Shown in pieces: positions 5,300-26,765 of a stretch of 32,000 nucleotides of DNA (positions are counted from its first letter, which is position 1; each line of letters begins with the position of its first letter). The notes beneath the pieces were generated by a model. The model searched no databases, was not told the DNA's origin, and saw only the letters and a program-made list of their open reading frames with translations. Source of the stretch: Nonlabens ponticola. Its GTDB lineage: Bacteria > Bacteroidota > Bacteroidia > Flavobacteriales > Flavobacteriaceae. The DNA lies in NCBI RefSeq assembly GCF_003966335.1, contig NZ_CP034549.1:2160001-2192000 (forward strand), in the 5' to 3' direction. Both the position numbers and the translations under genes were made by a program.

Positions 5300-7309
5300 A
5301 TGGAATTTAAGATAGAGTCAGACTTTCAACCTACTGGTGATCAACCGGCAGCCATCAAGAAGTTGGTAAAGGGAATTGAGAATCAGGATCGATACCAGAC
5401 GCTGCTGGGTGTGACTGGTAGTGGTAAGACGTTTACCATGGCAAACGTGGTCGAGAGTGTACAGAAGCCAACACTGGTATTATGTCACAATAAAACACTG
5501 GCTGCTCAATTATACAGCGAGTTCAAATCGTTCTTTCCTGAGAATGCGGTTGAATATTTTGTTTCCTATTATGATTATTATCAGCCAGAAGCATTTATAC
5601 CAACTAGCAGCACGTATATAGAGAAGGATCTTTCTATCAATGAAGAGATCGAGAAGATGCGATTGAGCACAACTTCTTCTCTACTTTCTGGACGTCGTGA
5701 CATCATTGTCGTAGCATCAGTTTCTTGTTTGTACGGTATAGGGAATCCTATTGAATTCCAAAAAAACGTGGTGCGTCTGGCCAAAGATCAAGTTATAGCT
5801 CGAACGGACTTGCTCAAGCAATTGGTTCAAAGTCTTTACTCTCGCACAACAGCAGAGTTCGGCCGTGGAAACTTCCGCATCAAAGGCGATACGATTGATG
5901 TATTTCCTAGCTATGCAGATACGGCGTTTAGAATACACTTTTTTGGTGATGAGATTGAGGAAATCGAGCGTTTTAATCCTACGGACGGTCGCGTGATTGA
6001 AAAGTACGAGCAAATCACAATCTATCCGGCAAACATGTTTGTAACATCACCAGACAGATTGCAAAATGCGATCCACTCGATTCAAGAAGACCTTGTCAAA
6101 CAGGTGGAATATTTCAAAGAAATAGGCAAGCCTCTTGAAGCTAAACGTATTGAAGAACGTACGGAGTTTGATCTAGAAATGATACGTGAACTAGGCTATT
6201 GTAGCGGTATTGAGAACTACAGTAGATACCTGGATGGTAGAATGCCTGGCACGAGACCATTTTGTTTGCTGGACTACTTTCCAGATGATTTCTTGATGGT
6301 CATCGATGAGAGCCATGTGAGCGTTCCACAAGTGGGCGCTATGTATGGTGGCGATAGGTCTAGAAAAGTTAATCTGGTAGATTACGGCTTTAGATTGCCA
6401 GCCGCCATGGACAATCGTCCACTCAAGTTTGAAGAGTTTGAAGCCTTGCAAAACCAGGTAGTTTACGTGAGCGCCACACCGGCAGACTATGAGCTGGAGA
6501 AAAGTGAAGGTGTTGTGGTTGAGCAGATTATAAGACCAACAGGATTGCTGGATCCCATTATCGAAGTAAGACCTAGTCAAAATCAAATTGACGACCTGGT
6601 TGAAGAAATACGCGTGCGAGAAGAGCGCGATGAACGTGTCTTGATTACGACGCTTACCAAGCGTATGGCAGAAGAGCTTACCAAATACCTTACTCGCATC
6701 AACGTGCGCTGTAGATATATTCACAGTGATGTTGATACCCTTGAACGGGTAGAGATCATGAGTGACTTGAGACGTGGTTTATTTGATGTGCTAATAGGAG
6801 TTAATTTATTGCGTGAAGGTCTTGACCTACCTGAGGTTTCTCTTGTAGCGATTCTAGATGCTGATAAAGAAGGTTTCTTGCGCAACAATCGATCGCTCAC
6901 GCAAACCATAGGACGTGCCGCACGTAACGTTAACGGACTTGCCATTTTATATGCTGACAAGATCACAGAAAGTATGCAAAAGACAATCGACGAGACAGAA
7001 TATCGTCGATCAAAACAAATTGCTTACAATGAGGAACATGGACTGACGCCTACTGCGATTAAAAAGAGTCTAGATAGCGCACTTGCCGGAAAAACCAAAG
7101 CCGTATACGCCATAGAGGAAACGCTCAATCTCGCTGCCGCAGAAGAAGAAGCTAGCTATATGAGTGTAGGCGATCTTGAGAAGAAAATACGCAGTACTCG
7201 CAAAAAAATGGAGACTGCGGCTAAAGAATTGGACTTTATGGAAGCGGCACGTTTACGCGACCAAATCAAGATGTTTCAAGAGAAATTAGCTGCTGAAAAA
7301 GCCAATTAA
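5300..7309 (+). CDS. uvrB: Excinuclease ABC subunit B
   Basis: Walker A (GVTGSGKT), the beta-hairpin region (SYYDYYQPEAFIP), DESH, helicase C motifs, and a C-terminal UVR domain (ELDFMEAARLRDQI). Confidence 0.97.
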   Translation: MEFKIESDFQPTGDQPAAIKKLVKGIENQDRYQTLLGVTGSGKTFTMANVVESVQKPTLVLCHNKTLAAQLYSEFKSFFPENAVEYFVSYYDYYQPEAFIPTSSTYIEKDLSINEEIEKMRLSTTSSLLSGRRDIIVVASVSCLYGIGNPIEFQKNVVRLAKDQVIARTDLLKQLVQSLYSRTTAEFGRGNFRIKGDTIDVFPSYADTAFRIHFFGDEIEEIERFNPTDGRVIEKYEQITIYPANMFVTSPDRLQNAIHSIQEDLVKQVEYFKEIGKPLEAKRIEERTEFDLEMIRELGYCSGIENYSRYLDGRMPGTRPFCLLDYFPDDFLMVIDESHVSVPQVGAMYGGDRSRKVNLVDYGFRLPAAMDNRPLKFEEFEALQNQVVYVSATPADYELEKSEGVVVEQIIRPTGLLDPIIEVRPSQNQIDDLVEEIRVREERDERVLITTLTKRMAEELTKYLTRINVRCRYIHSDVDTLERVEIMSDLRRGLFDVLIGVNLLREGLDLPEVSLVAILDADKEGFLRNNRSLTQTIGRAARNVNGLAILYADKITESMQKTIDETEYRRSKQIAYNEEHGLTPTAIKKSLDSALAGKTKAVYAIEETLNLAAAEEEASYMSVGDLEKKIRSTRKKMETAAKELDFMEAARLRDQIKMFQEKLAAEKAN

Positions 7310-7475
7310 TTCTTAATTCATTGGACGATTATTTTATTGCTTTCAACGTTTATTTAAGACCACCTACCACTTGAAACGTTTAACTGCTTAATTGCAGGTA
7401 GCACAAGGCTTTACGCCAGTTTTCCACTGTTATGTTTTCTATTTTTACAGACTATTTCAATAGAAATTTCTGAAA

Positions 7476-24473: not shown

Positions 24474-24815
24474 TACATTACAATCTTTCATCCTGAGCTT
24501 GTTTCAGACTCTCAAGTATGTTGATAATCATTATCAGATGCTGGATTAAATTGAGCATGACGGTGGTTTATTATTCTTAAATCGTCTTAAGATCTTGGGT
24601 ATGCTCAATGAGTGCCTCTAAGTGCTGATCATATCAAGCAGAGTGGTATTTTATTTGTCAGCTTGAATTTATTTCATGATCTCTAGGCACTCTATCGTGA
24701 AAAGTAGTCGGCTATTTGAGACATAAAAATTCATTTTATATGGTATACTGTGCTGTTCAATGAGTTTTAAGTTCATTGATATCATCAGTTTGCGTTAAGG
24801 ATCGTAGTGGAAATC

Positions 24816-24846
24816 CTTTTTGTCCAGCCATGAGCTGGACAAAAAG
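24816..24846. repeat. Perfect 13-bp stem / 5-nt loop hairpin in a long non-coding region
   Basis: CTTTTTGTCCAGC-catga-GCTGGACAAAAAG, read directly. Confidence 0.8.
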
Positions 24847-24925
24847 ATTGTAGCGCAGAGCCTGACCGCTATGTTTGAGCGAGAGCGAAATCATAGTGGT
24901 AACGCGCAAATATTAGAAAGCAATA

Positions 24926-25031
24926 TTATTACGTTATTAAGTAATAATTGTATTTATTACGCTTTTAGGTAATAATTACGATTATTACGTATTTATGTAA
25001 TATATTTGATTATTACGTATTTAGGTAATAA
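24926..25031 (+). promoter_or_regulatory. Four tandem 28-bp units, each containing the inverted repeat TTATTAC-N8-GTAATAA; putative operator array and promoter of the SatD-like operon
   Basis: The palindromes lie at 24926-24947, 24954-24975, 24982-25003 (right arm GTAATAT) and 25010-25031, exactly 28 bp apart. The last ends 3 nt before ATG 25035. TATATTTG at 25001-25008 fits the Bacteroidota -7 promoter consensus TAnnTTTG. Confidence 0.75.
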
Positions 25032-25034
25032 AAT

Positions 25035-25661
25035 ATGGAAGCAATTATAGCAGGCGATATTATCAACTCGCAACAGCATGATCCTGAAGCATACTTGACA
25101 GTACTGCAAGATATCTTGAAAGAACATTCTAGCGATGGGATGTTCCAGATTTACCGTGGCGACAGTTACCAGGCGCTGCTCACTAATCCTGAACAAGCAT
25201 TACATGCATGTATTAAAATAAAGGCGGCGCTCAAAAAAACAGAATCACTAGATACGCGTGTAGCGATAGGATTGGGTGATGTCACGATTATAGACAATAA
25301 CATCGCTGTCTCAACCGGTAGCGCGCTCACAAGATCTGGCGAGCTGCTGGACTCGCTCAAGGAAAAAGGGCATAATTTGTTAGTCAATTCTGGTAACTCA
25401 ATCGATAACTATATGAACACATCACTACGTCTGGCGATGCTATACATGGATGGCTGGACTACCAATAGTGCCGAAACAGTTTATGAATTGCTAGATCAAC
25501 CTGACATAAAACAGGACGAGCTAGGTAAAAGATTAGGCGTGAAACAAGCGACCGCGAGTAGACGCCTAGATCGTGCCAACTGGAAAGAAACGCAGCAGTT
25601 ACTGCGATTGTTTCAACAATTTTATAAAGATATAAGCCATGCCCATAGCAGTTCTAATTAA
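25035..25661 (+). CDS. SatD-family-like protein: N-terminal nucleotide-cyclase-homology-like domain fused to a C-terminal helix-turn-helix
   Basis: The N-terminus, AIIAGDIINSQ / FQIYRGDSYQALL / RVAIGLGDV / STGSALTRSGELL, parallels the class III cyclase and GGDEF palm motifs (FaDIvGFT / iGDa.ma.F / RiGihtG / G..VN.AaRl). The C-terminal HTH is KQDELGKRLGVKQATASRRLDRA. The SatD naming is from memory of annotations that pair it with DUF3307. Confidence 0.55.
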   Translation: MEAIIAGDIINSQQHDPEAYLTVLQDILKEHSSDGMFQIYRGDSYQALLTNPEQALHACIKIKAALKKTESLDTRVAIGLGDVTIIDNNIAVSTGSALTRSGELLDSLKEKGHNLLVNSGNSIDNYMNTSLRLAMLYMDGWTTNSAETVYELLDQPDIKQDELGKRLGVKQATASRRLDRANWKETQQLLRLFQQFYKDISHAHSSSN

Positions 25662-26349
25662 GCTAATCATCGCGCACCTGATAGGCGATTTTTTCTTACA
25701 AACGGACAAAAGTGTCCAAAAAAAAGAAGCTGAAAAGCTTAAGTCCGTGTCCCTATATATCCATGTACTACTGCATGGATTACTTTCATGGATCGCCTTG
25801 TGGAATATTGAGCTATGGTACATCGCGCTATTTATCATGCTAAGCCATCTCGTGGTCGATGTAGCGAAGTTGTACCTAACCAACAAGAAAAATAAACGCT
25901 GGCTGTTCCTGCTGGATCAAGTAGCGCACATTGCGACACTTGTCATAGCCTGGTTATGGTTATCAAACTTTAATATAGTAATGCCGTCATTGTCATCAAT
26001 GCACTTTTGGGCATTCATCGCAGGCATGCTATTCCTGACGGCACCTGTAAGCATCGCGCTCAAAACCTTTTTCACTAGATGGAAACTAGATCCACGCAAA
26101 GTAGGCGTTGACTCGCTCAAGAATGCGGGAAAGTGGATAGGCATGATTGAGCGATTACTGGTATTTGTATTTATCGTTGCCGGTCATTTTGAGGCGGTAG
26201 GATTTTTACTGGCGGCAAAGTCGGTTTTTAGGTTTGGTGATTTGAACCGTGAAAGCAATATGAAGTTGACGGAATATGTATTAATAGGAACATTGCTTAG
26301 CTTTGGGATCGCAATTCTCACAGGCCTTGCCTATCAATCGTTGCTATAA
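25639..26349 (+). CDS. DUF3307-like polytopic membrane protein with conserved intramembrane His/Asp
   Basis: IAHLIGDFFLQTD at the N-terminus, HVLLHG, LSHLVVDVAK, LDQVAHIA, and a C-terminal IERLLVFVFIVAG...AAKSVFRF. There are about 7 TM helices. It overlaps the SatD-like gene by 23 bp. Confidence 0.6.
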   Translation: MPIAVLIKLIIAHLIGDFFLQTDKSVQKKEAEKLKSVSLYIHVLLHGLLSWIALWNIELWYIALFIMLSHLVVDVAKLYLTNKKNKRWLFLLDQVAHIATLVIAWLWLSNFNIVMPSLSSMHFWAFIAGMLFLTAPVSIALKTFFTRWKLDPRKVGVDSLKNAGKWIGMIERLLVFVFIVAGHFEAVGFLLAAKSVFRFGDLNRESNMKLTEYVLIGTLLSFGIAILTGLAYQSLL

Positions 26350-26351
26350 TT

Positions 26352-26717
26352 ATGAAAAAGATTCTAGGTGTTATTATTGCCACTATCGTGCTTATGGCCG
26401 TGATCTGGTATAGCTTTCTATACTTTGCCACCTATTCAGATGGGTCGCGCAGCGGCGAGCTGATTAAGTTCTCACACAAGGGCTTCCTGGTAAAAACCTG
26501 GGAAGGCGAGATTTCACAAGGAATTTCAGGCGCGCAGATTTTTCAATTCTCAGTTTTGGATGAGGAAGATGAGGTGATTGAAAAACTACAAGAGTTTCAA
26601 GGAGAGTATGTCAAGCTGGAATATGAAGAGCGTTTTGGCACCTTTTTCTTCTGGGGTGATACCAAATATTTTATCACCGGTGTTGAATTAGAGGAATCAC
26701 CGCATTTCAGGCGATAA
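26352..26717 (+). CDS. Small N-terminally membrane-anchored protein (hypothetical), third gene of the SatD-like operon
   Basis: It starts 2 nt after the DUF3307 stop. It has one TM helix and then a 90-aa beta-rich domain (GELIKFSHKGFLVKTWEGEISQG...YVKLEYEERFG). Confidence 0.5.
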   Translation: MKKILGVIIATIVLMAVIWYSFLYFATYSDGSRSGELIKFSHKGFLVKTWEGEISQGISGAQIFQFSVLDEEDEVIEKLQEFQGEYVKLEYEERFGTFFFWGDTKYFITGVELEESPHFRR

Positions 26718-26751: not shown

Positions 26752-26765
26752 GCTTTCGCGAAAGC
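26752..26765. repeat. Copy 8 of GCTTTCGCGAAAGC (intergenic)
   Basis: Exact match. Confidence 0.95.

Follow-up and report, generated by a model that had tools for sequence, protein, structure and literature searches.

The sat operon of Streptococcus mutans, whose name stands for 'secretion and acid tolerance', contains the adjacent genes satD and satE, after which Pfam PF16264 and the DUF3307 partner are named; no biochemical role was assigned to these two genes. In the 2001 work of Kremer et al., the S. mutans phenotype is said to have been ascribed to ffh and not to satCDE. Here we describe a locus of Nonlabens ponticola in which the same two families, SatD and DUF3307, are encoded next to each other and in the same order. 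The locus lies at positions 25035–26717 of a window of 32,000 nucleotides (contig NZ_CP034549.1, positions 2,160,001 to 2,192,000; unless stated otherwise, coordinates are those of the window). The S. mutans genes are situated downstream of ylxM-ffh, whereas the Nonlabens pair has a predicted promoter and operator array of its own. We consider it probable that the two genes form an autorepressed module, in which SatD, with a palm domain that would bind a nucleoside triphosphate (NTP) and Mg2+ and might be catalytic, and with a HipB-like helix-turn-helix (HTH) domain, works with an obligate membrane partner, DUF3307, carrying a cytoplasm-facing metal site. An earlier interpretation of this DNA, made from the letters alone and referred to below as the sequence-only reading, had stated that SatD/DUF3307 pairs have no established biochemical function; in agreement with this, our literature search found no functional study of SatD, SatE or DUF3307 (PF16264, PF11750), and what it returned was limited to work on satellite DNA, an annotation table of a phage, a bulk annotation paper and mentions in passing.

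As in SatD, a nucleotide-handling domain and an HTH domain share one polypeptide in BirA, in NadR and in the mycobacterial cyclase–HTH fusions of the Rv0386 type. BirA and NadR regulate biosynthetic operons; in the Rv0386 type, a LuxR HTH forms part of a large multidomain protein. All of them differ from SatD in fold and domain order, and none is known to have a dedicated DUF3307 partner.

The locus comprises three open reading frames (ORFs) on the + strand. Genes 1 and 2 overlap by 23 bp and genes 2 and 3 are separated by 2 nt, with coordinates exactly as the sequence-only reading had given them. Since all three products have many homologues, the ORFs are real genes and not chance ORFs. Gene 1 (25035–25661, +) encodes a protein of 208 amino acids (aa) that is 100% identical to WP_126448106 (Nonlabens ponticola) and in which a palm domain is joined through a helical linker to an Xre/HipB-like HTH, with a long helix at the C-terminus; the structural model has a predicted local distance difference test score (pLDDT) of 95.3 and a predicted template modelling score (pTM) of 0.92. 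With the Pfam model of SatD (PF16264), it scores 28.6 bits at a cut-off of 29 (E = 1.3e-6, residues 5–181 of 208). The model is matched by 58 of 65 close homologues (best E = 3.3e-10), and several orthologues are labelled 'SatD family protein' by NCBI. We treat the gene 1 product as a divergent true member of the SatD family. Clustered at 50% identity, the sequences that match a SatD profile make up ~3,300 clusters, and our scan yielded matches in at least 581 species-level genomes; from species-level genomes we fetched the 80 best related Bacteroidota loci for comparison.

The strongest functional evidence at the satD locus is an array of predicted SatD operators at 24925–25031 (no strand assigned). 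It is located directly upstream of satD, outside the coordinates covered by the sequence-only reading, which missed it. The array is composed of four 22-bp imperfect palindromes of the type TTATTACG-N6-CGTAATAA (24926–24947, 24954–24975, 24982–25003 and 25010–25031) with 6-bp linkers and thus a 28-bp period, and the last unit ends 3 nt before the satD ATG. Tandem Repeats Finder (TRF) reports a period of 28 with 3.9 copies and 80% matches. Searched as a pattern with an 8-nt spacer at 0–1 mismatches, the palindrome is found only at this array in the window.

We surveyed the 200 nt upstream of satD in each of 81 loci. Chains of at least two units with a spacing of 28–30 bp are present in 58 of the 81 loci, whereas the rate among control windows is 1.6% overall and 5.8% for the AT-rich ones. 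Three or more units in a chain were seen at 36 of the 81 satD loci versus 1 of 4265 controls. Searches for the operator of each individual locus in 668 kb (6-kb flanks) gave 120 sites upstream of satD but no more than 6 at other positions. A metagenome scan that was blind to the encoded proteins and looked for two exact units of the CAC type (see below) returned 59 contigs, and in 42 of these the array is situated 8–110 nt 5' of a satD homologue.

The units share the form TTAT-NNNN-(A/T)6-NNNN-ATAA, in which the outer TTAT/ATAA and the A/T-rich centre are constant and an inner triplet varies by lineage. This half-site triplet changes together with residues 171–177 of the SatD recognition helix (residues 171–181, QATASRRLDRA in Nonlabens; 25545–25577, +), and the pairing is almost one-to-one. 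CAC or CAT is accompanied by helix QNA[VI]S[NSTG]R, CGT by QNT[VI]SER, the Nonlabens triplet TAC by QATASRR, AAG by QSS[VI]SQR, CGG by [QE]SS.SE[RK], TGC by QSAISTR, and TCC or GCC by QDA.SKR. Helix residues 172, 173 and 176 track the triplet. Mutual information between triplet and helix amounts to 2.73 bits, a value that none of 10000 shuffles reached and that is inflated by phylogenetic relatedness, which the statistic ignores. Flavobacteriaceae by themselves comprise at least seven triplet classes, and one and the same class can be found in more than one order. On account of this co-variation, SatD most likely binds the array sites itself, and the case is strong for a computational inference.

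The domain that would contact the operators comprises residues 143–181 of SatD (25461–25577, +) and was assigned as an HTH from HipB similarity, matches to HTH families, an all-helical model and the operator co-variation. Its best sequence relatives are HipB chains (E = 0.0015–0.0026), with KQATISN in HipB versus KQATASR in SatD, and HTH_3 and Xre-like Pfam models match 17–24 SatD members; these matches bear out the C-terminal HTH already suspected in gene 1. A MarR winged-helix model, with 22.8 bits, stays below its cut-off of 24.6 and covers only HTH residues 142–180. The SatD model has no beta strand after residue 118 and hence no beta wing, and the HTH is therefore not of the MarR winged-helix type.

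HipB binds four TATCC-N8-GGATA operators over its own promoter. As in the SatD array, these are TAT...ATA palindromes of similar geometry. The 14-bp spacing of half-sites was considered as a sign of an unusual filament, and this idea was dropped because the HipB operators have a similar geometry. HipB is a small stand-alone HTH protein with a kinase-toxin partner, whereas SatD possesses a palm domain and a membrane partner, a strict 28–29 bp phasing of its sites and a lineage-specific half-site code.

TAnnTTTG is the −7 promoter consensus of Bacteroidetes, known from promoter studies in Bacteroides and Flavobacterium. The element TATATTTG at 25001–25008 (+) matches this consensus, lies across the boundary between unit 3 and the linker that leads to unit 4, and is the predicted promoter element of satD. 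In the 58 array loci, TAnnTTTG was counted 57 times on the coding strand versus 8 times on the other strand, and it usually ends 1–2 nt before a unit. From the position of the sites, we infer that binding by SatD represses and does not activate. SatD would act as a one-component regulator whose HTH dimers bind the row of palindromes between and over the promoter elements, up to the start codon, so that bound SatD would block its own operon.

The upstream palindromes could also act at the RNA level, as hairpins of an attenuator or structured 5' leader, and not as DNA sites for a protein. The region indeed folds well (−33.2 kcal/mol, z = −5.65), and palindromy is kept while the sequence differs between lineages. 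However, mismatches between the arms show no G-U bias (35 are G-U-compatible versus 38 A-C and 128 others), no Rfam family covers the array, and the variable triplet changes in step with the recognition helix of SatD, the HTH protein encoded next to it. Directional promoter motifs lie within the array, and most units would thus not be transcribed. We regard hairpins in a leader as extremely unlikely, and prefer to read the palindromes as DNA sites for SatD.

Similar two-unit arrays of TATCAC-N8-GTGATA with 28-bp phasing also occur without satD, namely at L099 2064, L124 1570, L132 197 and L137 216 (between tRNA genes; loci are given by our L numbers with positions within each locus), at L085 2305 (flanked by an amidase gene and a holin-like gene) and at L116 2370 (upstream of a MazG-like gene). 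Those in phage-like contigs sit in tRNA clusters or a lysis cassette, and an array is also found upstream of a gene for a MazG-type NTP pyrophosphohydrolase. The arrays may mark additional regulon members, be phage imitations of the SatD sites of the host, or serve a related phage repressor. The one clear exception to the pairing of triplet and helix is L054, where a hybrid array upstream of satD (~5840–6000) has two CAC-type units followed by three TCC-type units and the helix (QNAVSTR) is of the CAC type; the hybrid may be a sign that a second paralogue cross-regulates the locus. Some Chitinophagales have a further pair of operator units just 3' of the DUF3307 gene, ~1.4 kb from the promoter array (L039 7357–7406; L007 ~7334–7383; L008 ~7349; the metagenome loci L105 7553 and 8972 and L138 1565 and 2984; L088 655). 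Since it is situated between convergent gene ends, this pair is not in a promoter. An operon that is bracketed by SatD sites in this way might be subject to looping or to a roadblock.

Residues 1–120 of SatD (25035–25394, +) form a predicted palm domain of the nucleotide cyclase/GGDEF/mCpol type with a beta-alpha-beta-beta-alpha-beta topology. In the AlphaFold2 model, which was calculated from an alignment of 65 homologues, strands extend over residues 2–10, 32–40, 44–49 and 73–81, the two intervening helices over residues 17–31 and 52–68, and further helices follow from residue 124 on. When the model was compared with the PDB using Foldseek, the top 16 matches were all nucleotide cyclases, GGDEF domains, GTP cyclohydrolase III, PycC or mCpol (probability 0.97–1.0), with top-hit E-values of 3e-3 to 5e-2 and a target-normalised template modelling (TM) score of ~0.5; generic ferredoxin-like folds ranked lower. 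The best matches are 4wp9 and 1ybt, from the class III adenylyl cyclases Ma1120 and Rv1900c, together with 5d0g and 1ybu (probability 1.0, target-normalised TM score 0.47–0.52), and further fold matches include the Pycsar uridylate cyclase PycC (8jsz) and the mCpol OptS (9pd0). A profile search of PDB sequences with SatD yielded three independent cyclases among marginal matches (E = 0.03–0.8). Ma1120 and Rv1900c are among these weak matches, and the profile alignment places RGDSF of SatD opposite QGDGF of Ma1120 and RIAIGLG opposite RIGIHMG. Together, the Foldseek ranking and the weak profile matches bear out the cyclase/GGDEF-type palm fold that the sequence-only reading had proposed for gene 1.

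SatD and the class III cyclases that match its fold best have in common the palm topology, two Asp residues and a subsequent R-x-x-I-G strand. Both metal-binding Asp positions of these cyclases, one at the end of beta1 and one in the beta2–beta3 turn, are present in SatD; the corresponding motifs, GDI at residues 7–9 and GDS at 42–44, are located where they had been described before, and D43 aligns with the GD motif of Ma1120. Among 144 representatives with a pairwise identity of at most 50%, D8, D43 and Q46 are 100% conserved, S12, G42 and G79 are conserved at 99%, G81 and G95 at 97%, and R75 at 96%. Homologues from Salinivibrio, Sphingomonas and Segatella with only 25–26% identity retain G7, D8, S12, R41, G42, D43, Q46, D73 and R75 as well as G95, A97, S101 and G102. 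Retention of both Asp residues, which had been claimed for the Nonlabens protein, thus extends to the whole family.

SatD also differs from these enzymes. Its palm has ~120 residues versus 160–190 in class III cyclases, is fused to an HTH, and shows neither a match to PF00211 nor an evident Asn/Arg pair. Class III cyclases carry a transition-state Asn and Arg in helix alpha4 and a substrate-specifying Lys/Asp (or Glu/Cys) pair. In SatD, residues 88–105 contain no conserved N-x3-R; the conserved residues of this segment are G95, A97, S101 and G102, and their equivalence to cyclase residues is uncertain. Because no conserved Asn...Arg transition-state pair is evident in SatD, a strict cyclase reaction is doubtful. 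GGDEF domains and mCpol (OptS of the Panoptes system, 9pd0) have a similar fold; RGD[S/E]F of SatD resembles the GGDEF motif, and its minimal size resembles that of mCpol. The motif reads RGDS[FY] in SatD and RGDEF in some homologues, so that the full GG[DE]EF pattern is absent and its second acidic residue is usually Ser; unlike GGDEF domains, SatD does not match PF00990. We conclude that, within the superfamily of palm-domain nucleotide cyclases and polymerases, SatD stands for a minimal branch of its own. It very probably binds NTP-Mg2+, and catalysis is plausible.

The partner protein is encoded by gene 2 (25639–26349, +) and is a polytopic membrane protein of 236 aa with ~8 helices (model pLDDT 86). 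RefSeq starts this protein at an ATA codon at 25645 (234 aa, MAVLIK...), two codons after the in-frame ATG at 25639, which would reduce the overlap with gene 1 to 17 bp. The protein scores 88.9 bits with the DUF3307 model PF11750 (cut-off 23, residues 5–110), which is matched by all of its 47 homologues. The N-terminal four-helix module (residues 4–110, 25648–25968, +) carries an invariant His5-Asp3-Gln2 cluster: H13, D17, Q21, H42, H46, H70, D74, D93, Q94 and H97 are invariant in the 47 homologues and are located on the first four transmembrane helices. The motifs HLIGDFFLQTD, HVLLHG, SHLVVD and QVAH, to which the sequence-only reading had drawn attention, were confirmed. The C-terminal transmembrane domain (residues 119–236, 25993–26346, +) contains the invariant residues E171, R172, K194, R198, D201 and E212 and is covered by no Pfam model. 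Judged by the positive-inside rule, the His5Asp3 cluster would be on the cytoplasmic side, where one or two metal ions are probably bound by it.

DUF3307 has no sequence match in the PDB, and its best fold match there has E = 0.3 and a TM score of ~0.2. A likeness to known membrane metal hydrolases, as suggested earlier, is thus not reflected in any PDB fold or sequence match. Scattered weak matches to Pfam families such as FA_desaturase (2 of 47 members) were treated as noise. Stand-alone DUF3307 modules of 109–134 aa, which comprise only the N-terminal His/Asp four-helix bundle, are encoded by phages of Acinetobacter, Ralstonia and Rhizobium. Examples are L084 2480–2809 (Acinetobacter phage SH-Ab 15599) and the BFVD entries A0A1L7N193, A0A8S5PQC1 and A0A7G7WXF7; there is no satD nearby, and a BFVD fold search with DUF3307 returned only such stand-alone phage modules.

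A DUF3307 gene adjoins satD on its 3' side in all 80 Bacteroidota loci, with a 4-nt overlap in 47 of them. The same adjacency is found in three distant loci, from Salinivibrio (a gammaproteobacterium), Sphingomonas (an alphaproteobacterium) and a Segatella plasmid, and the pairing proposed by the sequence-only reading therefore proves to be strict and to hold across phyla. Other neighbours, searched in flanks of up to 6 kb, are not conserved: rmuC (28 loci), a thioesterase gene (25) and carB (17) are common by lineage only.

A plain regulator–target pair would explain part of these data. The palm would then sense a nucleotide or a divalent metal without being catalytic, and DUF3307 would be the regulated product, for example a transition-metal transporter, serving homeostasis or resistance by the logic of TetR–TetA or CzrA–CzrB. 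An autoregulatory operator array that overlaps the promoter is in line with this, as are operators almost confined to the operon's own promoter and the lack, in SatD, of a cyclase Pfam match and of an evident Asn/Arg pair. Furthermore, i,i+4 His/Asp pairs are present on four transmembrane helices of DUF3307, and their HxxxD pairs resemble those of cation-diffusion facilitators. However, both Asp are among the 13 palm residues that do not vary between Bacteroidota and Proteobacteria, whereas sensor derivatives of catalytic palms usually lose the metal-binding acids. The two families are paired one-to-one and translationally coupled across phyla, as would sooner be expected of cooperating proteins than of a regulator with an interchangeable target, and DUF3307 matches no transporter fold. 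We therefore view a simple sensor with its target gene as possible but rather unlikely.

The resemblance of SatD to mCpol OptS and PycC also raises the question of anti-phage signalling of the Panoptes, Pycsar or CBASS type, in which a minimal palm cyclase makes a signal and a membrane effector kills the infected cell or arrests it. The two-gene layout of cyclase and membrane protein would suit such a system, and the partner gene of Panoptes encodes a membrane protein. In addition, stand-alone DUF3307 modules occur in phages and operator-like arrays in phage-like contigs, and in L082 (Sphingomonas insulae plasmid NZ_CP048421.1, 70061–76624) the pair is part of an apparent defence island, where genes for a TIR-domain protein and for an HTH + ImmA/IrrE pair lie to one side of it and those for a Pycsar effector, an adenylate/guanylate cyclase and an E2-associated protein to the other. 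Against this, none of the three proteins matches a PADLOC-DB model at E <= 1, and the systems described so far are not known to combine an HTH with so elaborate an autoregulatory array. All 80 best Bacteroidota loci contain the pair among lineage-conserved housekeeping neighbours (rmuC, thioesterase, carB, ABC transport) and not among recurrent defence genes, which indicates vertical inheritance and not the patchy spread of defence islands. In contrast to GGDEF and mCpol modules, that of SatD has a chromosomal, vertical distribution unlike that of defence islands, and it carries an HTH and an operator array. A defence function of the pair is very unlikely in our view.

In the autorepressed module that we favour, SatD would follow the logic of bifunctional enzyme-repressors such as BirA and NadR. 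We give about even chances to a palm that binds NTP-Mg2+ and also performs nucleotidyl transfer or cyclisation; at minimum, nucleotide binding by the palm might control DNA binding, a possibility we hold only tentatively. DUF3307 would be an obligate partner kept at a fixed ratio by translational coupling (the 4-nt overlap seen in most genomes). It might act on the ligand or product of SatD, sense it, or control SatD at the membrane. A bolder version starts from the fact that palm domains of the cyclase superfamily must pair to form active sites. SatD could then be a DNA-scaffolded synthase of a nucleotide signal, in which the array, phased at 28–29 bp, aligns SatD dimers in such a way that adjacent palms meet, and couples promoter occupancy to messenger synthesis, while the metal centre of DUF3307 senses or degrades the messenger; this we think unlikely. 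If true, it would mean a new and widespread housekeeping second-messenger circuit in Bacteroidota, Firmicutes and Proteobacteria.

Several points weigh against the autorepressed nucleotide-binding module as we propose it. The Foldseek E-values of the SatD palm are modest (3e-3), none of 65 SatD members matches the Pfam cyclase family PF00211 or the GGDEF family PF00990 at E <= 10, and an hhalign comparison of SatD with one GGDEF protein (from L081) gave nothing; membership in the class III cyclase or GGDEF Pfam families, to which the sequence-only reading had related the domain, was thus not found. A conserved Asn...Arg pair is not evident in the aligned region. On the DNA side, the co-variation statistic is inflated as stated above, about one-quarter of the loci show no clear array by the criteria used, and similar arrays are present in phage-like contigs that have no satD gene. 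Inspection by eye revealed no obvious 28-bp arrays at the loci from Proteobacteria and Segatella, and the array is therefore established only for the sampled Bacteroidota clade. Finally, the topology and the metal site of DUF3307 are predictions, and the literature searched holds no functional study of either family.

The SatD and DUF3307 families are both already catalogued. The assignment of the palm fold with catalytic-type residues, the phased array, the code linking helix and half-site, and the strict pairing with DUF3307 appear undescribed in the literature searched. The satD–DUF3307 module is sizeable and phylogenetically broad, being found in Bacteroidota and also in Firmicutes and Proteobacteria. 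Our analysis turns a pair of DUF-type families into a testable system with a predicted operator and promoter, a recognition code, candidate catalytic residues and a membrane partner without a solved fold relative. An active palm would represent a new branch of nucleotide second-messenger enzymes and a new type of enzyme-repressor, and an inactive one a clean case in which a catalytic fold has been turned into a sensor. In both cases, the operator/helix pairs offer a set of natural specificities from which orthogonal repressors could be engineered for Bacteroidota.

Gene 3 (26352–26717, +) encodes a small protein of 121 aa that is anchored at its N-terminus and has no Pfam, NCBIfam or PDB relative; an NCBIfam search with all three proteins of the locus yielded nothing beyond the Pfam assignments. 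The sequence-only reading had taken the three genes as one unit, in which the small anchored protein could be a working subunit. This is suggested by the 2-nt gap to gene 2 in the window, by a 4-nt overlap in five other Nonlabens loci and by the high conservation of the protein (77% mean column identity). However, a gene 3 homologue is found within 6 kb of satD in only 11 of the 80 loci and is absent in 69; it is located directly downstream only in Nonlabens (L001–L005) and L036, and upstream in Mesonia (~4.8 kb) and Bizionia (~0.7 kb). It is also absent from the distant pairs of Salinivibrio, Sphingomonas and Segatella. Since gene 3 is syntenic only in Nonlabens and one other locus, the conserved unit consists of two genes, and the proposal of a three-gene unit was not upheld; a functional role of gene 3 in the module is quite improbable. 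Although probably co-transcribed here, gene 3 is not a conserved member of the module but a local passenger in Nonlabens. NCBI and UniRef name its product '6-phosphogluconate dehydrogenase', a label that represents a propagated misannotation because an anchored protein of 121 aa has no dehydrogenase domain.

Some further elements were observed around the operon. The palindrome GCTTTCGCGAAAGC at 26752–26765, 35 nt past the stop codon of gene 3, may serve as terminator of the operon, although a T-run is lacking and a consensus terminator scan did not flag it. A Flavo-1 RNA motif (RF01705) is located at 24789–24871 (+) in the 560-nt gap between rmuC and satD (57.8 bits, gathering score 42, E = 6e-12) and contains a perfect 13-bp hairpin at 24816–24846. 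Among 11 other loci only L009 has Flavo-1, in two copies far from satD, and this RNA is therefore not tied to the satD module. Cobalamin riboswitches on the − strand, which are located by ABC-transporter genes flanking rmuC-satD in several Flavobacteriaceae (L036 1007–1279, L040 1239–1446 and L044 900–1193), likewise appear to be unrelated to the module.

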